Origin: Verrucomicrobiota bacterium
Lineage (GTDB): Bacteria; Verrucomicrobiota; Verrucomicrobiia; Limisphaerales; UBA1100
NCBI GenBank assembly: GCA_028343615.1
Contig: JAOLZA010000004.1
Span: 8,697-72,696 of the forward strand
DNA length: 64,000 nucleotides
Reading direction: 5' to 3'
This document shows, one piece after another, positions 25,795 to 54,713 of this stretch. The number at the start of each line of letters is the position of its first letter. Within the stretch, counting starts at the first letter, position 1. Both the position numbers and the translations under genes were made by a program. The notes beneath the pieces are model-generated. The model saw only the letters and a program-made list of their open reading frames with translations. It made no database searches and had not been told where the DNA came from.

Positions 25795-25806
25795 CTTTAC
25801 TTTGCG

Positions 25807-29625: not shown

Positions 29626-29899
29626 GGCAAATAATTCTATGCAAAAATACGAATCCAGATTTAAGTTAGGGCAAAATGGTATATATTCTCCAGAAAGAAC
29701 TTTTCTGCCAACAACTGGGATCAGGATCTTACGGTCCGGACAGATTCTATCTCACCATATTAGTTGATAAAAGGCTAGGGAGGATTTGTGCCGCATGCAA
29801 CTTTCAAACTTGGGCAAAGCGGTATTGGTGCGAGGGAGTTGTCGTTTCCCGAGCATACTCGGAAACCAAGCGGATCTAGTCGATATATCACCGGTCGCG

Positions 29900-30643: not shown

Positions 30644-30844
30644 GTGCTGGGATCATAGGCGGTTGCTCTTAAAATTCAAGCCGAAGAGAGGTGTCCCTGC
30701 ATTTTCGCCGGAATTTTATCCTGCCTGAAAGGGCTTGCTGTAGGGATCGGCGTTTTTTACCATCCAGAAGGAGGTGTCGCCGACCCTTGCCGTACTTTGT
30801 CAACCTAAATACGTTGCGTTTCCAACTGGGAAAAATCTTAGATC

Positions 30845-32655: not shown

Positions 32656-32717
32656 AGGAAATGATGTTCAAAGTCACTTAGGTTTGATATGGGTGGGCGG
32701 CGTTTGTTGCCCATCGC

Positions 32718-35259: not shown

Positions 35260-35279
35260 GTGGCTTACAAGGCGGGCGC

Positions 35280-37133: not shown

Positions 37134-37149
37134 CGGCATCATTTTCCCT

Positions 37150-38243: not shown

Positions 38244-38344
38244 GTTGTGCCTCACGATCCGCACAGGCATTATGTTCTCGGCGTGTTTGAAACAGTTCCG
38301 AGACCTGTGCGTCTGACTTGCGGTGGGTGTTGCGATATTTTCTG

Positions 38345-40075
38345 ATGATAAAACAACGAAAGAGTAGTTCGGGCAATTTTCTCCGGAGATTTGCTGTTTG
38401 TGCCATATTCTCCATGGGAATGGTGGGTTGTAAAAACGCGGCAGAACACCACGCGGCTGCCGACGAAGAGGTGTACGATATTCTTAAATTGCGCCATCAA
38501 CAACTATTTGGAGCGGAACAGGCATTCGCGGTGGAGACACCCTACTCCAAGCGCGCGCCGGGCGACATTCCTTCGGTGGAGATTATCCTAAACCGTTTTT
38601 CCGATGGCACCAATTTGCTAACGCTGCCTAAGGCGCTGGAGATGGCGGTGAATCACAGTCGCGATTACCAGCTCCAGCGCGAGACGTTGTATCTCTCCGC
38701 GCTGTCACTCACCGGCGAGCGGCACAAATTCGCGCTCAAACCCACCAAGGCCAATCTCGACCTCAGCCGCAACCGCTCCAGTAGTAACGTCAACACCACC
38801 GAATCCGACGCCACCCTGACTCTCAGCAAAGCGCTCAAGACTGGCGGCACGCTCACGGCCACGCTTGCCAACGACCTCACGCTCTTTTTCAATGGCGGCG
38901 GCCCCAAGATTCCGGACCTCACCCTCGCGCTCACGCAGCCGTTGCTAAAAGATGCCGGCGCGAAGTTTGCCGAGGAATTGCTGACGCAATCCGAGCGCGA
39001 TCTTGTGTATGCTATCCGTACCTTTTCGCGTTATCAAAAAACTTTTCTGGTCGACCGCATTTCCGAGTATCTAGCACTCTTGCAAAAAAAGGATGAGGTG
39101 CGTGTCCAATATGAATTGTACCAAAACCGAATCCTGTTCCGGAAGGAACAGGAGCTGCGTCTTCAGGGTGAACTGATTAGTCAATTCGAGCTGGATCAGG
39201 CACTGCGGCAGGAATATTCCTCGAAGGTAAGTTACATTAACGCCATAGAATCGTATCAGGCCTTGCTGGATGATTTCAAGAAACAACTCAACTTGCCACT
39301 GGGCGAATCGGTGGTACTGGACGATGCTGAACTGGGCAACTTTAAGCAATTTGGCCTGCAACCGGTGCCTTTGAATGACAAGCATGGTTTCCAGCTCGCA
39401 CTAACCAATCGGTTGGATATTTTGAATAACATCGACAAATTCGAAGATAAGAAACGCAAAGTGGAGGTTTCCGCCAACGACCTGTTACCCAGTCTTGCTG
39501 TCGTGGCGGATTACTCCCTCAAAGATCAGTTTTACAATCGCAACTCTTTCGACTTCGGCGATTACTCTGGTAAGATTGGCCTCTCGCTAGATTTGCCGCT
39601 GGATAAACACACCGAGCGCAACGCCTACCGCAAGAGTCGTATTACCTTCGAGCAACAGTTACGCAGTTTGATGAAGACACTCGATGACTTGCGCGATGAG
39701 ATTCGTACTAATGTACGTACACTGGATCAGAACCAGCAATCGTACGTGATCAACCAGAAAGCACTTGCAGTATCCAGGCGTGAACTTGAGAAGGCGAAGC
39801 TGGATATGCTGGCTGGTGGCAACGTTTCCCCTCGTGACATTCTCGAAGCGCAGACTGCTGTGGCCAAGGCGCAGAATGATGTTACAAAATCCTTCATAAA
39901 TTTCCATACCCAGCGCCTAAAGCTACTCAACAACACCGGCATTCTCAACACCGGCTTGAATCAGTTTTGGGTGCAACCACAACCCGTGCCGGGCGTGGCG
40001 ACAGGGGTGCCTCTTCCACCGGGCGCGGAGCAAGATGTGCCGGTGCTGCCGCCGGCACAAATTTTAGGCAATTAA
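38345..40075 (+). CDS. TolC-family outer-membrane efflux lipoprotein (copy 1)
   Basis: Lipobox FSMGMVGC. The two-repeat coiled-coil/beta-barrel pattern (LALTQPLLKDAG...; GLSLDLPLD...) is typical of the OEP family. The start is set at ATG 38345. Confidence 0.8.
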   Translation: MIKQRKSSSGNFLRRFAVCAIFSMGMVGCKNAAEHHAAADEEVYDILKLRHQQLFGAEQAFAVETPYSKRAPGDIPSVEIILNRFSDGTNLLTLPKALEMAVNHSRDYQLQRETLYLSALSLTGERHKFALKPTKANLDLSRNRSSSNVNTTESDATLTLSKALKTGGTLTATLANDLTLFFNGGGPKIPDLTLALTQPLLKDAGAKFAEELLTQSERDLVYAIRTFSRYQKTFLVDRISEYLALLQKKDEVRVQYELYQNRILFRKEQELRLQGELISQFELDQALRQEYSSKVSYINAIESYQALLDDFKKQLNLPLGESVVLDDAELGNFKQFGLQPVPLNDKHGFQLALTNRLDILNNIDKFEDKKRKVEVSANDLLPSLAVVADYSLKDQFYNRNSFDFGDYSGKIGLSLDLPLDKHTERNAYRKSRITFEQQLRSLMKTLDDLRDEIRTNVRTLDQNQQSYVINQKALAVSRRELEKAKLDMLAGGNVSPRDILEAQTAVAKAQNDVTKSFINFHTQRLKLLNNTGILNTGLNQFWVQPQPVPGVATGVPLPPGAEQDVPVLPPAQILGN

Positions 40076-40094: not shown

Positions 40095-42155
40095 ATGAAA
40101 AAAACAAATTTATTTCCAATCAGTGCCTTCGCAATGGTTGCAGTGGCTTTGGCCGGGTGTAATTATTTTTCCAGTGATGATGAAGTCTCCAGCACCTACG
40201 GCACGGAGAAAGTGGAGAACGAGCAATTCATCGTGTCCTTTTCCGAAGGCGGCGAACTAGTGTCGGTGAATGCGGTGAAGGTGGAAAATGAAATGGATGG
40301 CTCCGCTTCCATCGTGAGTATTGTGGACGAGGGCTCCTACGTGGAGGGGCCGCGTCAGGTTCAGGTGGAGCTCGGTGACACGCCTGCCAAACTGGCAGCA
40401 CGGCACAAGATTCCTGAGGCAGATCTGCGGAATATGAATCCCGCTCTGGAACAAGCGATCGCTAATAATGAGACAATTATGTTACCGGGAGATTTGTTGG
40501 TGGAACTGGATCCCGGCTCGTTAAAGGATAGAATTCTCAGCCAGGAAATCTCCGTGCGCACGTCGAAGAATTCCGTAATCAAATCACAGAACGATCTTGA
40601 GATTCAAAAGCTGAGGAATGAGCAGAACATTGATGACGCGAAAATTTCCCTGAACTTTGCCAATCTGGATTTGAAGAAATTCAAGAACAGTGACGCCCGC
40701 CTCACGCGCGAGGATTACGCGGGGCAGCTTTCCAACCTCTCCAACAAGGTATCCATCTCCGAGGCCAAGCTGGTTTATTTGAGGGAACTGGAGAAGAAAC
40801 AATTCCTTTCTAAAATGTCCCTGCGCGAGGAAGAGCAAAAGGTTTCGGAGTTCCGTCACAACATCCGGATGCTACGCGGTGAAAGCGATGCCTATGAAAA
40901 ATATGTGTATCCAAAATCCGAGCAAGATTATAATTCCAAAATCAAACAGGCCGAGCTTTCGCTGACTACTGTGGAGCAAACTGCCACCAATAATATGATC
41001 ACCGCTACTGAGGAGGTGGATACACAAAAGCAGAAACTTCAGCTTGAGGAAGAAAAACTCACCGAGGTTAAGGATCAAATGAACAAAAGCCGCATTTACG
41101 CGCCCTCCAGCGGGTTGGTGGTCTATCACGTCGGCGAATCCTCACGCTACGGCGGCTCCTCCGGCATCATCGAGAAAGGCACCACTCTGCGCAAGGGGCA
41201 GGATATCATTCACCTGCCGGATCTTTCCAAAATGAAAGTGCAGCTCAAAATTCACGAGAGTCGCATCAATCAAGTGAAGCCCGGCTTGCAGGTGCAGATC
41301 CGTATCGACACCATTTCCGATCGCACCTTTCGCGGTGAGATCACCTTTGTCGCCCCTGTGGCTGCTGCTGCCGAGCGTTGGGGTAGCGACAAAAAGGTTT
41401 TTAAATGCGAGGTCGCTATCAAAGATAAACTGCCATCGTATATCCGCCCTGGCGCCTCTGCTACTTGTCGCATCTTTGTGGCCAACCTGCCGAAGGTCCG
41501 AACGGTGGAAGGTGAACAAATCAAAACCCTGCGGGTGCCCATCCAGAGCGTGGTCACCACCGTCGAAGGCCGGCGTGTGTGTTTCAAGATGAATAAAAAA
41601 AACCAGCCCATCCCCGTGCCGGTGGAGACGGGCTATTACGACCAAACTCACATCCAAATCACCAAAGGTTTGGCCCTTGGTGAAGTCATCCTCAAAGCCC
41701 CCCTGCTCCACGCCAAAGAGCTGAACGTCGGCGGCGGCCTCTTTGGCTACCGGCAAATCAATGCCGATGATTTCTTCGCGGATTTACCCGAGACCATCGA
41801 GCCCGCCAAGCCTGTGGAGCCTCAACCCAGCATCGCCCAAAAGGCACCGCCCACCAAAGGGGGGCAAGGCAAGGGGCGGCCGGGCGGAGGTTCTGGACGT
41901 TCTACAGAGCCCCCTGCAGAACTCAATCTTTCCGCCGAGCAAAAAACCCAGTGGGCTGCGGCCGCTAAGAAAATGGCCGACAAAATGACAGACATTCGCG
42001 CTCGCCAAGCATGGACTGAGATGCGCACTTTGCGTGATGGATTCAAGGCAGATCTCGGGAAGTTTCTCACCAAGGATCAGCTTGCCAAATACGATGAGCT
42101 CAATGCCCAACGTGCTGGTGGAAGTGGCGGCAATCGCCCGGGTGGCGGAGGTTAA
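40095..42155 (+). CDS. HlyD/MacA-type periplasmic adaptor lipoprotein with a LysM-like insertion and a C-terminal G/P-rich plus LTxxQ tail (adaptor 1)
   Basis: Lipobox VALAGC. The lipoyl half-motifs IVSIVDEGSYVEGP ... PGDLLVELDP are split by VQVELGDTPAKLAARHKIPEADLRNMNP...IMLP. A long coiled coil and beta-barrel follow (RIYAPSSGLVVY). The tail contains LSAEQ and LTKDQ. Confidence 0.8.
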   Translation: MKKTNLFPISAFAMVAVALAGCNYFSSDDEVSSTYGTEKVENEQFIVSFSEGGELVSVNAVKVENEMDGSASIVSIVDEGSYVEGPRQVQVELGDTPAKLAARHKIPEADLRNMNPALEQAIANNETIMLPGDLLVELDPGSLKDRILSQEISVRTSKNSVIKSQNDLEIQKLRNEQNIDDAKISLNFANLDLKKFKNSDARLTREDYAGQLSNLSNKVSISEAKLVYLRELEKKQFLSKMSLREEEQKVSEFRHNIRMLRGESDAYEKYVYPKSEQDYNSKIKQAELSLTTVEQTATNNMITATEEVDTQKQKLQLEEEKLTEVKDQMNKSRIYAPSSGLVVYHVGESSRYGGSSGIIEKGTTLRKGQDIIHLPDLSKMKVQLKIHESRINQVKPGLQVQIRIDTISDRTFRGEITFVAPVAAAAERWGSDKKVFKCEVAIKDKLPSYIRPGASATCRIFVANLPKVRTVEGEQIKTLRVPIQSVVTTVEGRRVCFKMNKKNQPIPVPVETGYYDQTHIQITKGLALGEVILKAPLLHAKELNVGGGLFGYRQINADDFFADLPETIEPAKPVEPQPSIAQKAPPTKGGQGKGRPGGGSGRSTEPPAELNLSAEQKTQWAAAAKKMADKMTDIRARQAWTEMRTLRDGFKADLGKFLTKDQLAKYDELNAQRAGGSGGNRPGGGG

Positions 42156-42191
42156 GGTCGCGGCGGTAATTAATTTTCAAGCGTTTCGAAT

Positions 42192-42908
42192 ATGGAAACA
42201 AATCTAAACGGCAACGGTACGTCTATCATTCGCATTGAGGGAATGAAAAAGATATATGATCTTGGCGAGGTAAAGGTACCCGCATTAGCAGGGGTGGATA
42301 TCAACATTAAGGAGGGCAGCTACGTTGCTATCATGGGCCCCTCTGGCTCCGGTAAATCCACGCTGCTAAATTTGCTCGGTTGCCTCGATCGGCCCACCTC
42401 CGGCCGGTATTTCCTGGGCGAACAGGATGTGTCCCTCATGAGCGATAGCGCTCTGTCCGAAGTGCGCGGTCAACGCATCGGATTTATCTTCCAGTCATAT
42501 AACCTCATTCCGCAGCTGGATGTGGTGGAAAACATTCATGTGCCACTTTTTTATCAGGGCAAACAACTCTCCGCTCATCGTGAGCATTGCGAGGATCTGG
42601 CGCGGCTGGTGGGTCTGGCTGACCGGCTCGATCACCGCCCGCTGCAACTTTCTGGTGGTCAACAGCAGCGCGTTGCCGTGGCACGGTCGTTGGTGAATGA
42701 TCCATTAATGATCCTCGCCGATGAACCCACTGGCAATCTCGATTCCAAAACCGGCCTGGAAATCCTCGCACTGCTAGACAAGCTGCATGCCGATGGCAAG
42801 ACCATCGTTGTGGTGACGCACGATGAGGAAGTGGCGGAACGCGCGGATCGGGTAATTCGGCTCAAGGACGGTCTAGTGGATCGCGACGAACCCAATCCAC
42901 GTAAATGA
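42192..42908 (+). CDS. ABC transporter ATP-binding protein, MacB-NBD/LolD type (the only NBD gene in the cluster)
   Basis: [45 protein letters not shown]. Confidence 0.9.
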
Positions 42909-42909
42909 T

Positions 42910-44691
42910 ATGGGCTTCTTCCGCGCCATTATTCAAGGCATCAAGAGCCTCATGCTCTACCCGCTTCGCTCGATGCTCACTATGCTGGGCATCATCTTTG
43001 GTGTGTGCTCAGTGATTGCGATGCTTGCCATTGGCGAGGGCCAAAAACAAAAGGCAGAGGAGGAAATTAAAAAACTCGGTGCTATCAACATCATCATTAC
43101 CAGCCAAAAACCCATTGCGCAGGAAGTGCAGGGCCAGCGCACGGGGTTTGTGGCCAAGTACGGTGTGAAGTATGACGACGCTGCGCGCATTGCCGACCTG
43201 CGCGATGCCGGCGTGATCCGCGTGTTGCCCGAAAAAATTCGACGTGAGGACGTGGCCTTCGATCAGTTTGTGAAAAAGGACCGCGCAATTTACGGTACGA
43301 CTCCGTACTTTTTAGAATTCAGCCAAGCCGAAGTGGTGATGGGGCGTTTCATCAGCGAGGAGGACGAGATGACCAAGAACAATGTGTGTGTGATCTCAAC
43401 TACGTTGGCCTCGGAATTGTTTGCGTACCAAAATCCGCTTACCAATGAAATTAAAGTCGGGAAATATTATTACCGCGTGGTGGGCCTTGTGCGCACTCCG
43501 GCGGATTTATTGCGTGATTTCAAGGAGCAAAAACAACGCGTGCTTGACGAAGCCGTATTACGTGAAGCCGCGGCGCGGCTGGAGGAGAGCTTGGCGGCGC
43601 AGAATAAAATCATCAATCAGCGTCGGGAAAAGTTAAAGACCGGCACCGCCAAGGAACGCATGGTGGGCGAGGTAATTGAGCGCGAGCATCTCATTGAAAA
43701 CTCGGATATTTTGAAGCTCAACAAATTGCCCCCAATCGTTTTTCAGGAACGATTGGAAAATCAGGACACGCCGGAATCCAAATGGTTTTCCGACCAATCC
43801 GGCAAGGAATTTTTCGTGACGCCCGAAAACTGGGTGTACTCTTATGAAGGCAACAAAGCCGAGCTGGCTGGCCATCTCGGCCACGGGCGCGTTATGCGGA
43901 TGGCGATGGAGGCGGATATGGGCAATCAGGAAAGCAACCTCGGTAAGGCTAACGAATTTTATGGCGACGTGTACGTGCCTTTCCACACGTTGAGGCAGGA
44001 TTATGGTGATCGTGAATTTAAGCGGCAATCCGGTGGTATCTCAGCCAAGGAGGTGCAGATCGATCGGCTGCGTGTACAATTCGATCGGATGAATCATGTG
44101 ATCCCCGGTGCTAAAATGCTTGAACGTACAATGCGATACGGGCATCAGGATGTTCAAGACTTCGTCATCCGTGTGCCGCTTGATGAGCTAGCCACCGCGC
44201 GCAAAATTAACCTCATCTTCACCATCGTGCTTGCGGCTATCGCTTCCATCTCGCTGTTGGTCGGCGGTATTGGTATTATGAATATTATGCTTGCGACTGT
44301 CACCGAGCGTACCAGCGAGATTGGCGTGCGCCGCGCGTTGGGTGCCAAGAAGCTGCATATCATCCGCCAATTCCTCGTGGAAACCAGCGTGCTCTCTATA
44401 GCTGGAGGTATATTGGGTATCGCGGTGGGCTATGTATTCCCCAAATTGGCACAGAAGATTCTAAGTTCAAATGAGACTCTAAGTTGGCTAAGTGATAAAA
44501 TCCGGCAGATTACGTTTGGCATATTAGATTACGATTTTACAAAATTTAGCTACAATTTGGAGCTCGTCTTTACAAACTGGTCTGTGGCGTTGGCCTTTGG
44601 CCTTTCAGTATGTGTGGGCATCATCTTTGGCATTTACCCCGCCTATCGTGCTGCGAACCTCGACCCCATCGAAGCGCTGCGGCATTCTTAA
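42910..44691 (+). CDS. MacB/FtsX-type ABC permease with an enlarged periplasmic domain (permease 1, 593 aa)
   Basis: TM1 [26 protein letters not shown]. FtsX core [31 protein letters not shown] and C-terminal DPIEALRHS. It is about 160 aa longer than the three paralogues. Confidence 0.85.
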
Positions 44692-44789
44692 TGCCGGTGT
44701 TCCGATTCGCTCAGGAGCATCATTATTTTGTAACGCGGATGACATTCCTGCTGTAATAAGTGATAGCGAAGCATTGTGTGCAAATTTTA

Positions 44790-44818
44790 TTGAAAAGAAC
44801 TGGGGGTTTTTATACAAT
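44790..44818 (+). promoter_or_regulatory. Candidate sigma70-type internal promoter for the second efflux module
   Basis: TTGAAA-17 nt-TACAAT in the AT-rich 193-bp gap between permease 1 and adaptor 2, about 66 nt upstream of ATG 44885. Confidence 0.4.
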
Positions 44819-44884
44819 GTAAACAGTTTCCGTTGGGATGAAGACAGGGCATCGAGGCATACGTCCGAATTGCAAATTGAGCTA

Positions 44885-47026
44885 ATGACCATGAAAAAAC
44901 AAAATCAAACGACCGTAGACCAGAAGGGGTTTGCCATGGGAAAGTTACTCGGATTGTTAGCCTTGCTTGGATTGGTGGTCGGAGGCGTTTGGGGTGTTAA
45001 GCATTTGCTTTCCAAGGAAGAAGAGAAGGTCCGTCAGGAAAAGTACTGGACCGCTGAGAAGGCCGATTTTTTGGTGACAGTGAAACTCACGGGCAGGCTG
45101 GCTTCCACGGATGTGGTGGAACTCAAGTGCCAGCTAGAAGGGAGCACAACGATCGAATCGATTGTGGACGAAGGCGTCGAGGTCAAAGGTCCATTCAGGT
45201 ATATTATCAAGGCAGGTGATACACTTGCGTCAATTGCCGAATACATGGGTAGAGATGATCTTTCCATCCGCCTGCTTAATTCAGTAGAAGATATTGATTG
45301 GGGTAATTTGCCCGAAGGTCAGTCGATCATGATTCCCGGCGACCTACTGGTGGAACTGGATCCGCTCAATCTCAAGGAGCGGATTAACCAGATGGAGATC
45401 GTGGTGGAAAAGTCCGAGAATTCGCTCTTACGAATGACTGGAAACCTGAAAAACACCGAGCTCGCGGCGGCCTTCTCCTTAAAAGTCGCGGAAAATAATC
45501 ACAAGCTGGCAATCATGGCGCAGGACAAGGCCATAAACAGTACCATCAAAAACCAAATCAAGTCTGATATGGGAAGTATTACCAATCTTGCCAACCAAGT
45601 GGAGGAATCCAAAGAACAGATGGCAATCTCAGAAGCCAAGCTTAAGTGGCTCAAGGAGTTGGAGGAGAAAAAATTCCTTTCCAAGATGTCTTTGCGTGAG
45701 GAAGAACTGAAATTGATCAGGGAGCGGAATAATGCCCAGAATCTTCGCCACCAAATCGCGATGGCTCAAGAGCGGCTGGATGCCTACCAGAAATATGATA
45801 GTGTATCTATTCTGAACCAAAGTGAATTGGCTGTTGATGAGGCCTTGGTCTCCATTGAGAAGGTAAAGGTAAGGAATGTTGCTGACTTGAGGGATGCCAA
45901 TTCAACCATTGCCACCCAGAAGAAGACCTTTGAACTGGAAAAGGAAAGACTCGAAGATCTTAAGGAGCAAATGGCGGCCACAAGGATTTATGCGCCTTCA
46001 GATGGCACTGTTGTCTATTTTTCGGAAAGCTATAAGGAATACGGACCCATCATGGATGGGGCTCGAGTGCACCGAGGCCGCAACCTCATCAAGCTTCCCA
46101 AGACCAAGTCTCTGAAAGTAGAACTCAATGTTCCGCAAGCCAAACGAGGGCTTCTCAGGCGCGACATGAAAGCTTGGGTGCAGGTGGAGGATGTGACTCT
46201 GCCAGGAACCCTCTCGGTACTCGGGAGTACGGTTGATACCAATCGTCGTGGTCACACCGAAAAATCATATTTTAAAGGCGAAGTGTATATCGATAACAAT
46301 GATTTTCCCGATGCAGTTTCTGAAGGTATGACTGTTACCGTGGAGATCAAGGTCATCAATCTTGAGGGCGAAAACCAGCGGATCAAGGTCCCCAACCAAT
46401 GCGTGACAACCCGGATGATCAGTGAAGATACCGCACAGACTGGCTGCTATGTGTTGGATCCCGCCACCAAGAAACATAAGTGGCGACCGGTGACCATTGA
46501 ATACAGCGATGAAAACTTTATCGCGATCAAGGAAGAAACAGATCCAAGATTTGGCCTTCGAGAAGGTGAATTGATCCACTTGTCACCGTTGACTGAAGCA
46601 GAGAACCTAAACTTGGAGGAGGCAGTCATGGACAAAGGGATAGTTGAGTTGGGGGATCCAGGCAGCGTGGAAGCTTTGAATGTAAAAGGGAGAAATAGCG
46701 AACCTGTGGATTTTGGGTTGAGTGATGAGCAGCGGAAAGAGTGGGATGCGGCACAAGCCGAGGCCACAAGCGGAATTGCGGAGGTGATCAAGAAAATTCA
46801 GTCAAGGGAGATACCGCAAGAGAATGCCGTTTCAGTATTGAGTGAAACTTTTGAAGGTTCCCGTGCAAAGCTTGAGGGATTTCTTACTGAAGATCAGTTG
46901 AAGAAGTATGATGTATGGATTATTCCCGCCAAACAGGCTGCCGGCGAGAGGGTAAAACGTTTTCTTTCAACAAAATCTTCATTAGGGAAGTCGGTTAGCG
47001 GTAAGCAACGGCGTAATCGTAAATAG
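44885..47026 (+). CDS. HlyD/MacA-type adaptor with an N-terminal TM anchor, a LysM-like insertion and an LTxxQ tail (adaptor 2)
   Basis: The start is set at MTMKKQ (ATG 44885). The ORF-track extension to 44597 overlaps the previous gene. Anchor LLGLLALLGLVVGGVWGV. Insertion YIIKAGDTLASIAEYMGRDDLSIRLLNS...GQSIMIPGDLLVELDP. Tail has LSDEQ and LTEDQ. Confidence 0.8.
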   Translation: MTMKKQNQTTVDQKGFAMGKLLGLLALLGLVVGGVWGVKHLLSKEEEKVRQEKYWTAEKADFLVTVKLTGRLASTDVVELKCQLEGSTTIESIVDEGVEVKGPFRYIIKAGDTLASIAEYMGRDDLSIRLLNSVEDIDWGNLPEGQSIMIPGDLLVELDPLNLKERINQMEIVVEKSENSLLRMTGNLKNTELAAAFSLKVAENNHKLAIMAQDKAINSTIKNQIKSDMGSITNLANQVEESKEQMAISEAKLKWLKELEEKKFLSKMSLREEELKLIRERNNAQNLRHQIAMAQERLDAYQKYDSVSILNQSELAVDEALVSIEKVKVRNVADLRDANSTIATQKKTFELEKERLEDLKEQMAATRIYAPSDGTVVYFSESYKEYGPIMDGARVHRGRNLIKLPKTKSLKVELNVPQAKRGLLRRDMKAWVQVEDVTLPGTLSVLGSTVDTNRRGHTEKSYFKGEVYIDNNDFPDAVSEGMTVTVEIKVINLEGENQRIKVPNQCVTTRMISEDTAQTGCYVLDPATKKHKWRPVTIEYSDENFIAIKEETDPRFGLREGELIHLSPLTEAENLNLEEAVMDKGIVELGDPGSVEALNVKGRNSEPVDFGLSDEQRKEWDAAQAEATSGIAEVIKKIQSREIPQENAVSVLSETFEGSRAKLEGFLTEDQLKKYDVWIIPAKQAAGERVKRFLSTKSSLGKSVSGKQRRNRK

Positions 47027-47028
47027 CC

Positions 47029-48330
47029 GTGTTTGGGTTTTACATCCTTCGCATCGTTCAGGTGGGCTTCAAAAGCTTAAGGCTTCACAAGTTGCGGAGT
47101 GGTCTCACTATGCTGGGCATTGTCATTGGTGTGTGGGCCGTTATCACACTGGTCGCCATCGGTGAAGGGGCAAGCCATGACGCGCAGGAGGCGATCAAGG
47201 CACTGGGCGCGAATAACGTCATTATTCGTAGCGTAAAGCCTTTGTCAGACAAGCTCCAACTGCAGGGGAGAATGCAGTGGGAGACGATCTACGGCCTGAA
47301 AAATTCAGACGCAGGGCGGATTCTAAAAACAGTGCCGGGAGTTAAGCGTGTGTTGCCTATCCTGAGCCAGCGCAAGAATGTGGTACACGGCAAACGAAAT
47401 GTAGATTGCCAACTCATTGGCACCTTCCCTCACTACCCTGGATTCACCCAGTCCCGTATCGTTGCCGGTCAATTTCTAAATGAGATGGAGGAGGCTCGAA
47501 AAGAAAACTCCTGCGTCCTCACACTAGAGTTGGCTGAGAAGCTGTTCGCGGGCCAAAATCCACTCCTGGAAAATGTGATTGTTCGCGGTGTTGAATCTGC
47601 GCAGGTCTTCCGGGTAAAGGGTATTTTACAAGAGCGCGTGGATACCGAGAAACTGCCGCAGATGGCAGACGCAATGGGGCGAACGATTTCTGCCAATGTG
47701 TACATCCCTTTGTCTACCTTTAAAGCCCTTTACGGAATCAAGAATATTGATCTTAGCGTTGGCAGCGTTTCTGTGGAGCGCGTGGAGCTTACCGAGATTC
47801 GGGTTGAATTCGGATCGGTTGAAGAGGTGATCCCTGCGTTGCCGCTTCTCAGGGATTGCCTTGATAAATCACGCAAAGGCGAGGTGGATTACGAGATTGT
47901 GGTTCCCATTAAAGAGCTCAACACCCTCAAGGCGCAAAAAGCGCGTGATACCCGTATGCTTCTATACATCGCCTGTATCTCACTGTTGGTCGGTGGAATT
48001 GGCATTATGAATATCATGCTGGCCACCGTCACCGAGCGCACTCAGGAGATTGGTATCCGTCGGGCACTGGGGGCGACCCAGACGGACATTACCGTACAGT
48101 TCATGGTTGAGGCGCTGATGCTCTGCCTGATTGGGGGCACTATTGGGGTGGTGGGCGGTTGGGCGTTTGCCGCGTTCCGGCACAACATTTTACATATAAC
48201 GACCATAGTTACTGAATGGTCGGTAGTCATCGCTTTTGGTTTGTCCGTTGTAGTCGGGTTATTTTTCGGCATTTGGCCGGCTATCAAGGCTGCTGCATTG
48301 GATCCCATAGAAGCCCTGCGGCATAATTAG
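47029..48330 (+). CDS. MacB/FtsX-type ABC permease (permease 2)
   Basis: GTG start 3 nt after the adaptor stop. Motifs: [66 protein letters not shown]. Confidence 0.85.
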   Translation: MFGFYILRIVQVGFKSLRLHKLRSGLTMLGIVIGVWAVITLVAIGEGASHDAQEAIKALGANNVIIRSVKPLSDKLQLQGRMQWETIYGLKNSDAGRILKTVPGVKRVLPILSQRKNVVHGKRNVDCQLIGTFPHYPGFTQSRIVAGQFLNEMEEARKENSCVLTLELAEKLFAGQNPLLENVIVRGVESAQVFRVKGILQERVDTEKLPQMADAMGRTISANVYIPLSTFKALYGIKNIDLSVGSVSVERVELTEIRVEFGSVEEVIPALPLLRDCLDKSRKGEVDYEIVVPIKELNTLKAQKARDTRMLLYIACISLLVGGIGIMNIMLATVTERTQEIGIRRALGATQTDITVQFMVEALMLCLIGGTIGVVGGWAFAAFRHNILHITTIVTEWSVVIAFGLSVVVGLFFGIWPAIKAAALDPIEALRHN

Positions 48331-48436
48331 TCTATTATGGTAACAGAGGTGAAAAGATTGCCCCCAAAGAATCGTAAAATGTAATATTAAAGCTCCTCAT
48401 GCTGTAAGAATGGGAGCGAATTCACAGTTTTAAGTT

Positions 48437-49750
48437 ATGCTTGGTTTATCCATTCTACGCATCATTCAAGTTGGCTTCAAAGGACTTCGGCTGCACAAAC
48501 TGCGTAGCGGTCTGACGATGCTTGGAATGATCATTGGTGTGTGGGCGGTTATCACTCTGGTCGCCATAGGGGAAGGGGCCAGCCATGATGCGCAGGAGGC
48601 GATCAAGGCACTGGGCGCGCAAAATGTTATCATTCGAAGTATTAGGCCCCCCTCAATGAATGCCCAAATGCAGGGGGATTGGGAGAGTTTCTTTCGTCGG
48701 TGGATGGCGATCTATGGGCTCAAGAACACGGATGCAACTCGCATAAAAGAAACTGTGCCGGGAGTGAAACGCGTATTACCCATTTTGAATAAGCGCCTGA
48801 ATGTCGTGCATGGTCGCCGCGAAGTGGATTGTCAACTCATCGGCACCTATCCCTATTACCCGGAATTCACACAATCCAAAATTATCGCTGGGCAATTCTT
48901 GAATGAGGCCGAGGAAAACAGCAAGGCTTCCTCCTGTGTGGTTTCTCTGGAACTGGCGCAGAGACTATTCTCCGGACACAATCCACTCATGGAAAAGGTG
49001 ATTGTGCGAGGCTATGAATCTTCGCAGGTTTTTCAGGTTAAGGGTATTTTGGAGGAGCGCACTGATACTGAGAAATTGCCGCAATTGCCCGATGCTATGG
49101 GCCAGACAATTGCCGCCAACGTGTATATTCCTTTATCTACTTTTAAGTCGTTGTTCGGCGTTAAGAATGTTGACCGCAGTGTGGGCAATCTTAAATTGGA
49201 GAGTGTGGAACTGTCGGAGATTCGCGTGGAGTTCGACTCTGTTGAGCAGGTGATTCCGTCATTGCCGATGCTCATTGAAGCTTTGCAGACTGGGCGTGCT
49301 GAGAGGGATTTCGAGATTGTCGTTCCTATTAAGGAGCTCAACACTCTCAAAGCGCAAAAGGCGCGAGACACCCGCATGCTTCTTTACATCGCTTGCATCT
49401 CGCTATTGGTGGGCGGTATAGGCATAATGAACATCATGCTGGCCACCGTCACCGAGCGCACACAGGAGATTGGTATCCGTCGGGCACTGGGAGCCAAGCG
49501 GACGGACATAACCGTACAGTTTTTGGTGGAAGCCCTGATACTTTGTCTAATTGGCGGTTCCATCGGTGTTTTAGGTGGCTTAGCCTTTGCCGCATTCCGG
49601 CATAACATTCTACACACAACGACCATCATTACTGAATGGTCGGTACTTATCGCTTTCGGCTTATCGGTGGCGGTGGGGCTGACCTTCGGCCTTTGGCCAG
49701 CAATCAAGGCGGCCTCACTCGATCCCATTGAAGCTCTGCGGCACACGTAG
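48437..49750 (+). CDS. MacB/FtsX-type ABC permease (permease 3), a tandem paralogue of permease 2
   Basis: Long runs identical to permease 2, for example [47 protein letters not shown]-terminus is DPIEALRHT. Confidence 0.85.
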   Translation: MLGLSILRIIQVGFKGLRLHKLRSGLTMLGMIIGVWAVITLVAIGEGASHDAQEAIKALGAQNVIIRSIRPPSMNAQMQGDWESFFRRWMAIYGLKNTDATRIKETVPGVKRVLPILNKRLNVVHGRREVDCQLIGTYPYYPEFTQSKIIAGQFLNEAEENSKASSCVVSLELAQRLFSGHNPLMEKVIVRGYESSQVFQVKGILEERTDTEKLPQLPDAMGQTIAANVYIPLSTFKSLFGVKNVDRSVGNLKLESVELSEIRVEFDSVEQVIPSLPMLIEALQTGRAERDFEIVVPIKELNTLKAQKARDTRMLLYIACISLLVGGIGIMNIMLATVTERTQEIGIRRALGAKRTDITVQFLVEALILCLIGGSIGVLGGLAFAAFRHNILHTTTIITEWSVLIAFGLSVAVGLTFGLWPAIKAASLDPIEALRHT

Positions 49751-49814
49751 ATCTGCCTTGATACATAAAATACCGATTAAAACCAACGGGCGTGCGTCCA
49801 ACTTGCCCCTAAAT

Positions 49815-51515
49815 ATGATGATGAATTATTCCTTTAAACTTCTTGGCATTCTTTTGTTGGTCGCGGTGTTGCTAGCCGGCTGCGAAGCGGCCAAGTTCCG
49901 TGACGCTGCTGATGACGAAGTGTATGGCATTTTGAAACAAAGAGGTAGCGACGTATTGGGTGCGGAGCAGGATTACGATATCCGTACCGTGTGGAGCGGT
50001 CGCGCGCCGGATGCTATTCCGCCGGTGGATATTATCAACGACCGCTTCCGCGATCAAACCAGTGTACTTACCCTTGAGTCCGCGCTAGGTATGGCCATTA
50101 CTAACAATCGCGCGTATCAGTTGCAAAAAGAGACCCTTTATCTTTCCGCATTGTCGCTCACCGGAACGCGGCATAAATTTGTGTGGCAGCCTACAAAGAG
50201 CACGGCGGACCTCGGCATTGGCCGTGACTCAAGCAAGGGCCTTAAGGGCGATTCCGATCTCGATTTGACCTTCAGTAAACTTTTCAAAACTGGTGGCACG
50301 CTTACTGCCACTTTGGCGAACGACTTGGTACTGTATTTCAATGGCAAACCGAAGGTTCCGGACATCACCCTCAAACTTACCCAACCGTTGTTGCGTGGAG
50401 CGGGGCGCGCCATCGCTGAGGAAGTGCTCACACAGGCGGAGCGCGATGTGGTTTATGCAGTTCGCGATTTCAGCCATTACCAAAAGACGTTTGCGATTGA
50501 AACGGTGTCCGAGTATTTCCGTATCCTTCAGAAAAAGGATTCAGTGAGGAACAGTTATAGCAATTATCAAAACCTGCAGGGCGCGCGCGCGCGCGCGGAG
50601 GCGATGGTGGATGCGCAGCGGTTGCCGAAGTACCAAGTGGATCAGGCGCGTCAAAAAGAACTTTCTTCCCGCGTAAAATATCTTGCTGCTGTGGAGAGCT
50701 ATCGCGCGGCATTGGATACCTTCAAGCAACGGCTCGCTTTGCCGCTGGGCGCGGATCTCAAGCTTGACGAAACCGCTCTCCGCGTACTTGTGCAGACGGG
50801 ACTAACCCCGTTGGAGTTAAACGCCCGCAATGGCTACCTCATTGCGGTGACAAACCGATTGGACCTTCTCAACCGAATCGACCAGTATGAGGATTCGCAG
50901 CGTAAAGTGCGGGTGTCGGCGGATAATCTACAACCGAGCCTAAACCTAGTAGTGGATGCTTCGTTGACAGAACAGTTCTACAGCTCCTTTTCGCCGGAAA
51001 ATTTTTCCGCAAACGTGGGCCTGCAGCTGGGTTTGCCGCTGGATAAATTGACGGAACGTAACGCCTATCGCACCAGCCTCATCAGCTTTGAAAAGCAACT
51101 CCGCGCCCTCGCCTCGGAACTTGACGAATTACGGGAAGACATACGCCAAGGTATCCGGCAACTTGCTCAAGAACATGAAAACTATTTTATCCAACAAAAC
51201 GCCCTCGCCCTCGCTCAACAGCGGGTAAATGTTATGCCGCTGTTGCTTGATGCGAATCAGGCAGACATCCGCGACCAACTCGAAGCTCAAGCCGACCTTG
51301 TAAGTGCACAGAATGCTGTGACCGGAGCAATGGTTAACTATCATGTGGCACGTTGGAATTTATTGAAGGACCTAGGCGTTATGCGCGTCGAAACTGGTCA
51401 GTTTTGGCTGGGAAATCAGCCTTTACTTGGAGTAGCCGCACCGGTTATCCCAAGTGCCTCGGGGCAGTTGCCTAACGTAGTTACGCCTGGGCAGGTGTTC
51501 GGAGAACAGAAATAG
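49815..51515 (+). CDS. TolC-family outer-membrane efflux lipoprotein (copy 2)
   Basis: The start is set at MMMNYSFKLLGILLLVAVLLAGC (lipobox). It is collinear with TolC copy 1 (for example TLTATLANDL, LTQPLL, GLQLGLPLDKLTERNAYR). Confidence 0.8.
   Translation: MMMNYSFKLLGILLLVAVLLAGCEAAKFRDAADDEVYGILKQRGSDVLGAEQDYDIRTVWSGRAPDAIPPVDIINDRFRDQTSVLTLESALGMAITNNRAYQLQKETLYLSALSLTGTRHKFVWQPTKSTADLGIGRDSSKGLKGDSDLDLTFSKLFKTGGTLTATLANDLVLYFNGKPKVPDITLKLTQPLLRGAGRAIAEEVLTQAERDVVYAVRDFSHYQKTFAIETVSEYFRILQKKDSVRNSYSNYQNLQGARARAEAMVDAQRLPKYQVDQARQKELSSRVKYLAAVESYRAALDTFKQRLALPLGADLKLDETALRVLVQTGLTPLELNARNGYLIAVTNRLDLLNRIDQYEDSQRKVRVSADNLQPSLNLVVDASLTEQFYSSFSPENFSANVGLQLGLPLDKLTERNAYRTSLISFEKQLRALASELDELREDIRQGIRQLAQEHENYFIQQNALALAQQRVNVMPLLLDANQADIRDQLEAQADLVSAQNAVTGAMVNYHVARWNLLKDLGVMRVETGQFWLGNQPLLGVAAPVIPSASGQLPNVVTPGQVFGEQK
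50581..50597. repeat. (GC)8 dinucleotide microsatellite inside the TolC-2 coding sequence
   Basis: gcgcgcgcgcgcgcgcg is read directly from the sequence and encodes GARARAEA in frame. Confidence 0.9.
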
Positions 51516-51519
51516 AAAA

Positions 51520-53229
51520 ATGGCCAAAGCCAAGGCATTCATTCAGAAGCATCCGGCGTGGACCACGGTGATCATCGTGATGCTCGCCAGCGTGTTCATG
51601 GGCGCTAAATGGCTGGAACCCACAAGCGGGTCCGCAGTCGTCATGCAGTTCGCAACTGCCCAACGGGGGGGCTTGCGCGTTACGGTAACCGAAGGGGGGT
51701 CACTCGATTCCACACGCAAGGTCAGCCTACGCTGTGAACTTGATGGTGGCGGGACCATCGTGGAGTTGGTGAATGAGGGAGCCTATGCGAAAGGTCCGCG
51801 TGAACACCAGGCTGAGGTAAGCGACACATTGCAAACTCTCACCGAAACCTATCGGTCTCTTGCTCAGCCTCCAAGCGGAAAAGAACCACCGACTCCGCTC
51901 CAAATAAAGGCACTGGAGGAATCCATTCGACGGATCAACCCCGAAGTGGATTGGGATAACTTGAACCTCGGCCAAACAATTCTTTTGCCGGGCGATCTAT
52001 TGGTGAAGTTTGAGGACGGTTTATTACGTGAGCGGATTTTTAGCCAAACCAAATCCGTGGAGGATGCCGAGCGGGACTTGGGAAATTCCGAAAAAGATTT
52101 GGCGCTGCGCAAGATTGAAACTGCTGAGGTGAATCGGCAGGCAGAACTTGATGTGGAATTCGCCGAACAGGATTTAGCAAAATACATTGAAGGTACCGCC
52201 CCGCTGGCCAAGTTGGCGTTAAAGGGCGATATTGATATTGCGGAGGAGGAAATCAAGCGCGCTGAAGACCGGCTGGTGAGCACGAAAAAACTCCGCACCA
52301 AAGGCTACGCCACCGACCTTGAGGTGCAAGCTGATGAGCTAACCATTCAAAAACAGAACAACCTCATCACCAAATATCGCAAACAAATGGACTTGCTAGA
52401 GCGGTTTGACATTCCACAAATGACTAAGCGATACCAGTCCAAGTTAGCCCAAGTGCGCGTGAGTGAGAAGCGCATGATCGAGAAGTCCCGGACCATCGTC
52501 GAAAGTCAAACCGAGACGGTCGACCGGCGCAAAGCCGGGCTTCAGGCCCAGCGCGATAAGTTGGAATTGTATCAGGTTCAACTCATTAAGACTGAAATGC
52601 GCGCTCCGCAGGATGGCCTCGTGATTTTCGCCCGCAGTTCCTCGCGCTACAGCGAATCCTATATCAAGCTTGGTGCGGATATTCGCAAGGGCTACAATGT
52701 TATCGATTTGCCGGACGTTAGCGAGCTGATGGCGGTGGTCCAGGTGCATGAATCGTATGTGCGTCACTTGCACAATGACCTCAAGGCGATTGTGAAGATT
52801 GATTCATTGCCGGAACAAGAATTTGACGGTGTCGTCCGATTGGTGGCCCCCACTCCCGATCAGCGCCGTCGGTACTATGAGAATATTTCAGTATACGACA
52901 CGCATGTTTGGATTGAGGATGAGCAAAATCAATTGCCCCCGGATCTCAAGCCGGGGGTTTCTGCGCGCGCAGAAATTGTCATTGCTGAGCTGACAGATGT
53001 ACTCAAGATCCCCGTACAATGTGTTACCACTCTTCGCGGACAAAAGGTGGTTCAGATCAAACGCGGTGATTCAGTGGAGACGGTGTCCGTAGAAACCGGG
53101 CAATTCAACGAACGTTTCATAGAAATTCGAGAAGGGCTCACGGCGGGGGATCAAGTTTCGCTGTCACCGAAAATCGAAGAGCCTTCCAACTTGACCAAAG
53201 GCAAAACGCAAGCCGCGGTCGGGCGCTGA
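51520..53229 (+). CDS. HlyD/MacA-type adaptor with a TM anchor and a longer, degenerate LysM-like insertion; no LTxxQ tail (adaptor 3)
   Basis: Anchor WTTVIIVMLASVFMG. IVELVNEGAYAKGP ... LPGDLLVKF flank the insertion AEVSDTLQTLTETYRSL...INPEVDWDNLNLGQTILLP. Beta-barrel motif MRAPQDGLVIF. Confidence 0.8.
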   Translation: MAKAKAFIQKHPAWTTVIIVMLASVFMGAKWLEPTSGSAVVMQFATAQRGGLRVTVTEGGSLDSTRKVSLRCELDGGGTIVELVNEGAYAKGPREHQAEVSDTLQTLTETYRSLAQPPSGKEPPTPLQIKALEESIRRINPEVDWDNLNLGQTILLPGDLLVKFEDGLLRERIFSQTKSVEDAERDLGNSEKDLALRKIETAEVNRQAELDVEFAEQDLAKYIEGTAPLAKLALKGDIDIAEEEIKRAEDRLVSTKKLRTKGYATDLEVQADELTIQKQNNLITKYRKQMDLLERFDIPQMTKRYQSKLAQVRVSEKRMIEKSRTIVESQTETVDRRKAGLQAQRDKLELYQVQLIKTEMRAPQDGLVIFARSSSRYSESYIKLGADIRKGYNVIDLPDVSELMAVVQVHESYVRHLHNDLKAIVKIDSLPEQEFDGVVRLVAPTPDQRRRYYENISVYDTHVWIEDEQNQLPPDLKPGVSARAEIVIAELTDVLKIPVQCVTTLRGQKVVQIKRGDSVETVSVETGQFNERFIEIREGLTAGDQVSLSPKIEEPSNLTKGKTQAAVGR

Positions 53230-53243
53230 TCCGACCGCATCCG

Positions 53244-54533
53244 TTGCGCATGAACCTTTCCCTCGTTCGAGTCATTCACCTGGGCATCAAGAGTCTGATG
53301 CTACACAAAATGCGTTCACTGCTTACGATGCTGGGTATTATCTTCGGCGTGTGTTCGGTGATTGCGATGCTTGCTATTGGTGAAGGTGCCAGCCATGAGG
53401 CGCAGGAAGCCATCCGTGCGCTCGGCAGTCGCAATGTTATCATACGTAGTGTACCGCCGCCCAAGGGGCAGTCTACCGCCGACACCGTGCAAACCTATAC
53501 TGCAAATTATGGCCTCAAACTTTCGGATGTGCAGTTGCTGGAAGAAACTCTGCACCCGCGTATCACAGCCACACTTGCCAAACGGCGCTATCGCATGAGT
53601 GTGCGAGTCGGGCGTGTGGAAGTATCTGGCACCGTGTGGGGAACACAACCCAATCACCTGCGGATGAGCCAAATGGAATTGCTTGCGGGGCGGTTCCTGT
53701 ATGTCACCGATGCGCATGCCAACGTGTGCGTGATCACTGATTCCATGGCCACCCGGCTTTTTCCTGTTTCCGATCCGCTTCACGGCGAAGTAAAGCTGAA
53801 TAACCGGCAGGTATTTCGCGTGGTGGGTGTGGTGCGTGAAACCGCCGCGGCCAGCGCACGCGCACCGGGGCAGGACAATATCGGCCGCGCGTTGGATGCC
53901 AATGTGTACATCCCTCTTGCCGCTGCGCATTCGCGCCTAGGCGTGCTGTTCACCGAACGTTCCACCGGTGGCTCCCAGCGCGAGCGGGTGGAACTGCATG
54001 AACTGGTTGTTGAATTGGCCGATGTGAATCACGTGGAGGCCACCGTGCCAGCTATCCGCGCCGCATTAAAAACAGCGCACAAAAAAATTGATTATGAAAT
54101 CATCGTCCCATTAGAGTTGCTGCGACAAGCGGAAGAAACTAAGCGCATATTCAACATCGTCCTCGGCTCCATCGCCGGCATTAGCCTCATCGTCGGTGGC
54201 ATTGGCATTATGAATATCATGCTCGCCACCGTCACCGAGCGTACGCGTGAGATCGGCATTCGTCGCGCGCTCGGTGCACAAAAGAGCCAGATCATCACGC
54301 AGTTCTTGGTGGAGACCGTCGTGCTCTCAATCGCCGGCGGTTTGGTGGGTGTAGTGCTTGGCGTAGCGTTGCCTATAGCAGTAGAACATTTTGCCGAAAT
54401 GAAAACCATCGTCACCCTTCCCGCCGTGCTGCTTGCCTTTGGTATCTCTGCCGTAGTGGGCGTGGTTTTCGGCGTGTACCCCGCCCGACGTGCCGCCAGC
54501 CTCGATCCCATTGAGGCCCTGAGGCACACCTAA
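53244..54533 (+). CDS. MacB/FtsX-type ABC permease (permease 4)
   Basis: [66 protein letters not shown]. The start is either TTG 53244 or ATG 53250. Confidence 0.85.
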   Translation: MRMNLSLVRVIHLGIKSLMLHKMRSLLTMLGIIFGVCSVIAMLAIGEGASHEAQEAIRALGSRNVIIRSVPPPKGQSTADTVQTYTANYGLKLSDVQLLEETLHPRITATLAKRRYRMSVRVGRVEVSGTVWGTQPNHLRMSQMELLAGRFLYVTDAHANVCVITDSMATRLFPVSDPLHGEVKLNNRQVFRVVGVVRETAAASARAPGQDNIGRALDANVYIPLAAAHSRLGVLFTERSTGGSQRERVELHELVVELADVNHVEATVPAIRAALKTAHKKIDYEIIVPLELLRQAEETKRIFNIVLGSIAGISLIVGGIGIMNIMLATVTERTREIGIRRALGAQKSQIITQFLVETVVLSIAGGLVGVVLGVALPIAVEHFAEMKTIVTLPAVLLAFGISAVVGVVFGVYPARRAASLDPIEALRHT

Positions 54534-54713
54534 AGCTTCAAAATTCGATGTTGGCACATTAGTTGCTTAAATTGCGTCATAAGGAAACAGACGTGAAAAC
54601 GACTGGTTTTCCGGAAAAAGTTTGAAGCTGGCGTGTGAATTTTCACGCAATTGAGTGAGTTTTGCGCACCGTCGGTTAATTCGGTAAAAAAATATCAAAA
54701 TAGGATCATTAAA

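Follow-up and report, generated by a model that had tools for sequence, protein, structure and literature searches.

The 64,000-nucleotide stretch analyzed here, referred to as the window, comes from Verrucomicrobiota bacterium (GenBank assembly GCA_028343615.1; contig JAOLZA010000004.1, positions 8,697 to 72,696 of the forward strand) and encodes a cluster of MacB-type tripartite pump genes with three periplasmic adaptors. Each of the three adaptors almost certainly contains a true LysM domain nested within the hairpin of its lipoyl domain. The function proposed for this design is that of a six-fold LysM collar around the lipoyl ring, by which the pump would be docked to the sacculus; for that statement as a whole, function included, the chances are evenly balanced. 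Both parts, LysM and adaptor, are familiar, unlike their nesting and its placement. Positions given below are those of the window, and all pump genes and the features within them lie on the forward strand.

The adaptors are encoded at 40095..42155 (adaptor 1), 44885..47026 (adaptor 2), and 51520..53229 (adaptor 3). Between the segments EGxxVxGP and PGDLLV(E/K)(L/F) they carry 44, 47, and 63 extra residues, respectively, not counting the flanking prolines. The descending side of the adaptor 1 lipoyl hairpin (DEGSYVEGP, 40326..40352) is followed by the 44-residue module (RQVQVELGDTPAKLAARHKIPEADLRNMNPALEQAIANNETIML, 40353..40484) and then by the ascending side (PGDLLVELDP, 40485..40514), which leads into the alpha-hairpin. 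The 47-residue module of adaptor 2 (FRYIIKAGDTLASIAEYMGRDDLSIRLLNSVEDIDWGNLPEGQSIMI, 45194..45334) is flanked by DEGVEVKGP (45167-45193) and PGDLLVELDP (45335-45364). The 63-residue module of adaptor 3 (51799..51987) lies between NEGAYAKGP (51772-51798) and PGDLLVKF (51988-52011) and includes an 18-residue loop from helix 1 to helix 2 (RSLAQPPSGKEPPTPLQI, ~51853-51906).

Relatives lacking the insert are contiguous across the site ('EGTRVKKGDPLVELD', 'EGTHVEPGDLLVELD'). When the first 300 residues of the three adaptors were aligned with those of 20 homologues, the insert-less paralogues P0077, P0079, P0084, and P0085 showed a clean gap at this position ('IVDEGTRVKKGDPLVELDPGSL'); these four and a fifth, P0082, read 'VDEGTRVKKGDPLVELDPGSL' without interruption. 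The nearest relatives outside the clade, which were metagenome-assembled genomes (MAGs) of Planctomycetota, Phycisphaeraceae, and Opitutia and one unclassified MAG, were also insert-less and carried the second of the contiguous forms ('EGTHVEPGDLLVELD'). The clean gap identifies the flanks as the two sides of one beta-hairpin in the N-terminal half of the lipoyl domain. A first-pass annotation, made from the sequence without database searches, had described the lipoyl motif as split in all three adaptors. Its coordinates proved exact (ranges of 46, 49, and 65 residues with the flanking prolines included), and the alignment to insert-less relatives bore out its assignment of the flanks to the two sides of the lipoyl domain.

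The insert was present at the same site in 108 of the best 120 listed adaptor-1/2-type homologues and in all 120 listed adaptor-3-type homologues. Chance or low complexity as the origin of the insert was excluded by the profile E-value (~1e-10) and by conservation in >200 sequences. Mis-assembly or frameshift was excluded by the occurrence of the same architecture in independent MAGs from many samples.

Single-sequence searches placed the inserts at the edge of detection. Relative to the Pfam LysM (PF01476) gathering cutoff of 20.9 bits, the isolated insert 1 scored 21.4 bits (E 2.4e-4) with partial coverage and insert 2 scored 20.3 bits over its full length (profile positions 1-43 of 43); insert 3 alone gave no Pfam LysM match. 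Using a profile of 24 non-redundant adaptor-1/2-type inserts, all PDB sequences were searched. Solved LysM domains made up nearly all of the matches, among them the best 12, with full-length coverage. These included LytE (1.7e-10), the Thermus thermophilus NlpC/P60 LysM (2e-10), and YkuD (2.5e-9, profile positions 2-44 of 44), as well as Ecp6, AtlA, and MltD. At E<0.01, all but one of the 24 inserts matched PF01476, the best of them at 9.9e-8. An exhaustive hidden Markov model (HMM) search was also made with a 125-position segment profile covering the lipoyl strands, the insert, and the start of the hairpin. Multi-LysM proteins dominated its matches via positions 40-90, a sign of the LysM nature of the middle of the profile.

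The residues that form the LysM groove, GDT after strand 1 and an Asn at the end of helix 2, were found in the inserts. The motif reads GDTP in adaptor 1, GDTL in adaptor 2, and SDTL in adaptor 3. Across the adaptor-1/2-type alignment the Thr of GDT and the helix-2 Asn were invariant, and in adaptor-3-type inserts the D and N were invariant and the T nearly so. The corresponding Thr of the AtlA LysM contacts the lactyl group of N-acetylmuramic acid (PMC4083421).

All structural statements here rest on predictions. Adaptor 2 was modeled with AlphaFold2 (AF2) over residues 40-600 from a 50-row alignment (mean predicted local distance difference test score, pLDDT, 80.8); the predicted template modeling score of 0.50 was as expected for an elongated multi-domain protein. 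The adaptor 2 insert was predicted with a pLDDT of 85-90 as two helices (74-81 and 85-91) framed by two strands (64-67 and 107-110), i.e., the beta-alpha-alpha-beta topology of LysM. It sits between lipoyl strands, before the strand (114-118) that runs into the hairpin.

The adaptor 3 insert was linked to the others by profile comparison and by fold. A profile of 16 adaptor-3-type inserts aligned with the adaptor-1/2 profile in hhalign at 98.8% (E 4e-17), the sole large difference being the 18-residue gap between helix 1 and helix 2. Searched against the PDB, this profile gave only weak matches to the N-terminal half of LysM domains (LytE 0.002). The isolated insert was modeled by AF2 at a pLDDT of 90.9 as a strand, a kinked helix, a long loop, a helix, and a strand. 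In a Foldseek search of the PDB, its best eight matches were all LysM, with target-normalized template modeling scores of 0.76-0.82 and root-mean-square deviations of 2.1-2.7 Å. Together, the hhalign link and the LysM-like fold of the adaptor 3 insert establish that the three inserts are homologous LysM modules occupying one common site. The LysM identity proposed in the first-pass annotation therefore stands on the family profile, the 23 of 24 Pfam matches, and the fold, and less well on single sequences, where Pfam was borderline for two inserts and silent for adaptor 3. The beta-alpha-alpha-beta domain that it suggested looking for by structure prediction appeared in the adaptor 2 model. 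It had also ranked adaptor 2 as the clearest case and adaptor 3 as the longest and most degenerate; that order stands, and adaptor 3 is better termed a LysM with an 18-residue inter-helix loop.

Each of the host proteins is, as judged from sequence, a member of the periplasmic adaptor superfamily lying outside the named subfamilies RND_mfp, MacA, and type I HlyD. HlyD_D23 and HlyD_3 matches were found across the three adaptors: adaptor 1 matched both (4.5e-11 and 1.3e-8), adaptor 2 matched HlyD_3 (1.3e-6), and adaptor 3 matched both (9.4e-8 and 7.8e-6). The adaptors scored 62.5, 47.5, and 80.6 bits against the NCBIfam RND_mfp model (TIGR01730; cutoff 94.9), the last corresponding to 9.6e-23 for adaptor 3. 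Scores against the MacA equivalog (NF008606) were 22.3 and 57.4 bits (cutoff 342), and those against type_I_hlyD (TIGR01843) were 49.8 and 41.1 bits (cutoff 208.65); none of these cutoffs was reached. The AF2 model of adaptor 2 shows a lipoyl domain split by an alpha-hairpin, together with beta-barrel and membrane-proximal domains. Its top Foldseek matches in the PDB were MacA, AcrA, MexA, and EmrA (1e-17 to 1e-13; MacA 5nik_D 2e-16). In this model adaptor 2 is an otherwise canonical four-domain MacA/AcrA-like adaptor. Genes for inner-membrane transporters and outer-membrane factors adjoin the adaptor genes, and this gene order is kept in other MAGs. Read directly from the sequence, the lipobox of adaptor 1 (LAGC) and the N-terminal transmembrane anchors of adaptors 2 and 3 place all three proteins in the periplasm, anchored to the inner membrane.

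More than 100 orthologues carry the module, and those that are named come from aquatic Verrucomicrobiota MAGs and one probable Planctomycetaceae lineage. Labels on the closest database relatives assign them to Verrucomicrobia subdivision 3, Verrucomicrobiales, or Pedosphaera MAGs, and many derive from Tara or other marine samples. In a GTDB-based collection, a scan with the single peptide pattern PGDLLV[EK][LF][DE] found the design in at least 15 species-level genomes, all Verrucomicrobiota MAGs. This count, and with it the phyletic survey that the first-pass annotation had suggested, is a lower bound. About 15 of the 150 matches listed in the segment-profile search had the whole design, a sample rather than a full census. 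The design-bearing MAGs among the matches listed in the GTDB-based scan came from marine water, the Antarctic, an oxygen-minimum zone, and Lake Baikal. Automated labels for these proteins read HlyD or efflux adaptor, and PF01476 was precomputed on 6 of 120 listed homologues, so the design is easily overlooked.

A distant subgroup (P0327, P0341, P0387, P0388, and the frameshifted L021:8001-9919) has the form 'GPQTAEINGNETPQQLADQHKMTLEKLRELNPTLDTLIKDGKDIIL-KQGDLLVTF'. On a 140-kb metagenomic contig, which bears PSCyt2, PSD1, and DUF1501 genes as well, its neighbors are ABC_tran and MacB_PCD/FtsX genes. A fragment ~88% identical to P0327 over their overlap is labeled Planctomycetaceae. The design thus probably extends to Planctomycetota, an extension that rests on MAG binning. 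In L021:8001-9919, a frameshift at the start of the LysM, between EEGTYVK and GPQTAEING, splits the adaptor into two called genes and is probably a homopolymer sequencing error; this adaptor also bears C-terminal EF-hands.

A bootstrapped neighbor-joining distance tree was built from adaptor cores with the inserts removed; distances in it are rough and only some nodes are well supported. The insert-less outgroup was separated with 96% bootstrap. The insert-less P0077 group fell inside the LysM clade, nearer to the adaptor-1/2 types than adaptor 3 is, with 95% bootstrap. This topology suggests one gain, duplication to three paralogues, and one clean loss as the simplest history, and implies that in the P0077 group the module was secondarily lost in a precise manner, which restored a VKKGD turn. 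The five members of that group (P0077, P0079, P0082, P0084, and P0085) have signal peptides, and some have EF-hand matches. One further homologue, P0061, combines an adaptor-1-type backbone (61% identity) with an adaptor-2-like LysM that is 12 residues longer ('TKYTIKKGDTLESIS...LSIRKLN...LDNLSVGEVIQIP'), which suggests that LysM modules have been swapped between paralogues.

In the proposed arrangement, each adaptor is a four-domain MacA/AcrA-like protein, and linkers of 1-2 residues splice a complete LysM into the N-terminal half of its lipoyl domain, at the turn preceding the last strand, the one that leads up into the alpha-hairpin. On the model, it is a folded periplasmic module joined rigidly to the lipoyl domain by these short linkers. 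With its two termini next to each other, as in any LysM, the module would fit the hairpin turn and leave the host domain undisturbed. In the AtlA LysM the glycan groove is built by the beta1-alpha1 and alpha2-beta2 loops (PMC4083421), so the groove would lie at the far tip, away from the lipoyl domain. Assuming the stoichiometry of 5NIK (adaptor hexamer, dimeric transporter, and trimeric outer-membrane factor), a hexamer would place six LysM modules as an outward-facing collar outside the lipoyl ring. Single LysM modules bind weakly and several together bind better, multiple modules raising affinity (PMC4083421). It is on this basis that the collar is proposed to grip glycan strands containing N-acetylglucosamine (GlcNAc), putatively those of peptidoglycan, and it would thereby fix or position the MacB-type pump within the wall. 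A tether to the sacculus, as the first-pass annotation had suggested, is plausible. AcrA offers a precedent for wall contact: its hairpin tip touches peptidoglycan in situ, a contact proposed to position the AcrAB subcomplex (PMC6570770).

A bolder version holds that glycan binding by the collar controls hexamer closure or channel opening, acting as a licensing device through which the unusually long pump (hairpin ~145 Å) assembles or fires only where the sacculus is correctly placed, or else that the collar handles GlcNAc-containing cargo. This version is a long shot. Were the licensing form true, the wall in these bacteria of the Planctomycetes-Verrucomicrobia-Chlamydiae (PVC) group would lie only ~7-9 nm from the inner membrane, and the hairpin tube would cross a very wide outer periplasm.

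Several observations weigh against docking to the sacculus, and the most serious concerns geometry. The spacer between the lipoyl halves, i.e., the hairpin, is 194-208 residues long in these adaptors, and in the adaptor 2 model its helices span residues 123-221 and 227-324, ~98 residues each. The spacer of E. coli MacA, in the sequence we take to be that of the protein, is 92 residues. With a MacA stem of 70 Å (PMC5985334), a hairpin about twice that of E. coli MacA would put the LysM collar ~145 Å below the hairpin tip and, by estimate, only ~7-9 nm from the inner membrane. In E. coli it is just above the tip of the adaptor hairpin, and not level with the lipoyl ring, that the wall is found (PMC6570770). 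With the collar so far below the tip, the sacculus can be the ligand only if the wall of these bacteria is much closer to the inner membrane than that of E. coli; otherwise the ligand is something else. Insert-less relatives have an equally long hairpin spacer, and coevolution of the long hairpin with the LysM was rejected for that reason.

The remaining points against docking concern the modules themselves. Adaptor-1-type modules have GDTP rather than GDTL and are without the usual G-Q ahead of the last strand; the window's adaptor 3 carries SDT, and the putative planctomycete form has GNET. Inserts also evolve faster than cores (mean pairwise identity 59% vs. 70%, 67% vs. 77%, and, the largest difference, 45% vs. 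76% in adaptor 3). Finally, one subgroup lost the module cleanly and is presumably still functional. Despite the faster evolution of the inserts, the GDT Thr and the helix-2 Asn have been retained.

These same features could be read as signs of a structural or protein-protein role without glycan binding, in which the LysM is a brace between protomers or against the enlarged permease periplasmic domain, or a tolerated passenger. The lower conservation of inserts than of the core, the erosion of canonical motif positions in several lineages (GDTP, SDT, GNET), the borderline single-sequence Pfam scores, the 18-residue loop gained by adaptor 3, and the loss of the module in one subgroup would all fit. 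A mere spacer, however, would not be expected to have its groove-lining Thr and Asn as the most conserved positions of the module. The module has also been kept at the same site through the divergence of paralogues that are now ~27-32% identical, and a true passenger should have decayed or been lost more often. A purely structural role is accordingly judged rather unlikely.

In another reading, the LysM would capture cargo or a ligand, binding a GlcNAc-containing substrate or signal (such as a glycolipid, oligosaccharide, or wall fragment) and concentrating it, without any anchoring, at the lateral entry to the cavity that the MacB periplasmic domains and the adaptor ring enclose. MacB-type pumps load periplasmic substrates into a cavity beneath the lipoyl ring (PMC5985334), and strand order in the adaptor 2 model puts the insertion turn low in the lipoyl domain, at its barrel-proximal end. 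LysM recognizes GlcNAc-X-GlcNAc in several polymers, peptidoglycan being one of them (PMC4083421), and the locus adjoins glycosyltransferase family 2 (GT2) and family 4 (GT4), methyltransferase, and MsbA-like genes in an order, described below, that is kept in several MAGs. The functional link to these glycan genes is putative, though, and an insert-less paralogue group exists in the same lineage. The module is retained in three paralogous pumps whose permease sets differ, a pattern more in keeping with a general role in the envelope than with a single cargo, and cargo capture is considered unlikely.

A plug or gate, formed by six LysM modules projecting into the channel below the lipoyl ring and regulating flow in the manner of the MacA glutamine-loop valve, is very improbable; the only pointer to a lumen-facing orientation is the pseudo-twofold relation of the insertion turn to the loop with Gln209, a pairing made on what we take to be the E. 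coli MacA sequence (of the right length, with Q at 209 in IAAQQAPN). That loop does project into the MacA channel (PMC5985334), but there is probably too little room for six folded modules of 44-63 residues (together 30-40 kDa) in a chamber that also holds the tops of the MacB periplasmic domains.

Attachment of the pump to the wall by a dedicated module, if true, would be a natural experiment and would supply a defined, mutable handle with which to test the role of wall attachment in pump assembly, positioning, and gating. It would also report on wall position in the envelopes of marine Verrucomicrobia and Planctomycetes. For engineering, the acceptance of a whole inserted domain by the lipoyl hairpin turn is useful in the construction of tagged adaptors.

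The impression gained from the sequence, that this design is absent from characterized pumps, agrees with the literature on adaptors and tripartite pumps: in the portions available, no description of a LysM or of any dedicated wall-binding domain inside an adaptor was found, and the reviews make no mention of LysM. The closest analogues in function occur as separate proteins of other trans-envelope machines. TsaP and FimV are LysM proteins around the type IV pilus trans-envelope channel that couple the channel to the wall; they differ from the window adaptors in being separate proteins with a terminal LysM that act on the secretin. SiiA has a wall-binding domain of the MotB/OmpA type. In the Salmonella pathogenicity island 4 (SPI4) type I secretion system, SiiA brings a peptidoglycan-binding function to an ATP-binding cassette (ABC) transporter-adaptor-outer-membrane factor machine, as a separate accessory protein and not within the adaptor SiiD (10.1101/2020.01.25.919720).

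The relation between tripartite pumps and peptidoglycan is partly understood, and its main datum is the in situ contact of the AcrA hairpin tip with the wall. In AcrAB-TolC (in situ cryo-electron tomography, PMC6570770), the pump is proposed to be positioned or stabilized by the contact of its adaptor with the sacculus; a contact of this kind is putative for the window adaptors. AcrA makes it through its alpha-hairpin tip and has no dedicated glycan-binding domain, whereas the LysM modules of the window are at the lipoyl domain, far below the tip.

MacA of MacAB-TolC (E. coli and A. actinomycetemcomitans; 5NIK, 3FPP, 4DK0) shares the four-domain architecture (membrane-proximal, beta-barrel, lipoyl, and alpha-hairpin) and is among the top structural matches. 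Adaptors 2 and 3 resemble it further in their N-terminal transmembrane anchor, and the partners in both systems are a MacB_PCD/FtsX permease, an ABC ATPase, and an outer-membrane factor. MacA differs in its contiguous lipoyl hairpin (VKKDQLLGVID) without LysM, in its stem (~70 Å vs. ~145 Å predicted for the window adaptors), and in its family score, the window adaptors reaching 22-57 bits against the NCBIfam MacA cutoff of 342. In MacB the ATPase is fused to the permease; in the window it is separate, with four permeases per ATPase gene.

The best matches to the inserts over the full module length, with the GDT...N signature, were LysM domains of wall enzymes (YkuD 1Y7M, LytE 8I2E, T. thermophilus NlpC/P60 4UZ2, and AtlA 2MKX). 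The YkuD motif NPsLq after helix 2 also occurs in the inserts. In these hydrolases and transpeptidases the LysM is N- or C-terminal and often in tandem, unlike the single module nested within a domain in the window.

The pump cluster occupies 38.3-54.5 kb and comprises, by Pfam, two outer-membrane factors, three adaptors, one ATPase, and four permeases. Outer-membrane factor 1 (38318..40075) is TolC/OprM-like with a lipobox (MVGC) and matched Pfam OEP at 5.5e-13; its match to the NCBIfam TolC family (1.9e-8) fell under the curated cutoff. Adaptor 1 is of the lipoprotein type and is followed by the MacB-type ABC ATPase (42192..42908), a separate polypeptide (Pfam ABC_tran 2.9e-30) whose top NCBIfam match was the MacB nucleotide-binding domain (2.2e-71). 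MacB/FtsX-type permeases are encoded at 42910..44691 (permease 1; MacB_PCD 2.4e-26, FtsX 2.3e-20), 47029..48330 (permease 2; 1.5e-28, 6.3e-21), 48437..49750 (permease 3; 3.9e-29, 4.4e-20), and 53244..54533 (permease 4; 1.5e-32, 1.3e-19). Permease 1 has an enlarged periplasmic domain: it is 593 residues long vs. 429-437 for permeases 2-4, and the ~160 extra residues lie within the periplasmic core and have a coiled-coil-rich look. The probable start of adaptor 2 is MTMKK at 44885; the mechanical open reading frame begins at 44597. Outer-membrane factor 2 (49728..51515; lipobox LAGC; OEP 4.5e-13) probably has its true start at MMMNYSF, near 49815.

The C-terminal tails of the adaptors also vary. 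Adaptor 1 in the window has 686 residues and ends after RPGGGG (window 42100-42195). Its orthologues are 750-800 residues long and, including the 99%-identical P0001 (766 residues), extend into a Gly-rich linker and two EF-hand calcium-binding motifs (DADEDGKVS... and DTDGDGSIN...; Pfam PF13202/PF00036 precomputed). The window reads GGGG, a stop, GRGGN, and a second stop; the EF-hand tail has been deleted, a stop codon replacing a Glu codon. In its own right, an EF-hand tail in the periplasm is an unusual feature for an efflux adaptor. Adaptors 1 (~41890-42110) and 2 (~46760-46960) have a helical C-terminal tail past the membrane-proximal domain, with the paired motifs L(S/T)xEQ...W and LTK/EDQLxKYD, and adaptor 3 is without it. 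The tail of adaptor 1 gave a weak Pfam LTXXQ (Spy/CpxP-like) match (E 0.019, residues 608-654).

The region directly upstream of the pump genes (30845-38031) encodes methyltransferases, glycosyltransferases (two of family GT4 and one of GT2), an MsbA-like ABC exporter, and, in divergent orientation, a Ser/Thr kinase. The GT2-MsbA-kinase(-)-outer-membrane factor-adaptor order is kept in several verrucomicrobial MAGs, and the multi-adaptor locus with the upstream GT2-MsbA-kinase genes is syntenic in several design-bearing genomes. These glycan genes hint that the pumps serve the export of envelope glycolipid or glycan. The protein encoded immediately downstream (54651-55604) carries a prepilin-type methylation motif at its N terminus (Pfam N_methyl 1.7e-8); its family is strongly expanded in Verrucomicrobia and Planctomycetes.

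Farther upstream, a low-GC island spans 24000-30700 (GC 0.40-0.43 vs. ~0.53 elsewhere). Its genes encode a sulfotransferase, a TauE/SafE exporter, a TylF-type O-methyltransferase, and a 729-residue fusion of a pyruvate-kinase barrel, PUA_2, and ATP-sulfurylase. A CMP-sugar cytidylyltransferase is encoded immediately 5' of the island, which looks like a cassette for a sulfated, methylated glycan.

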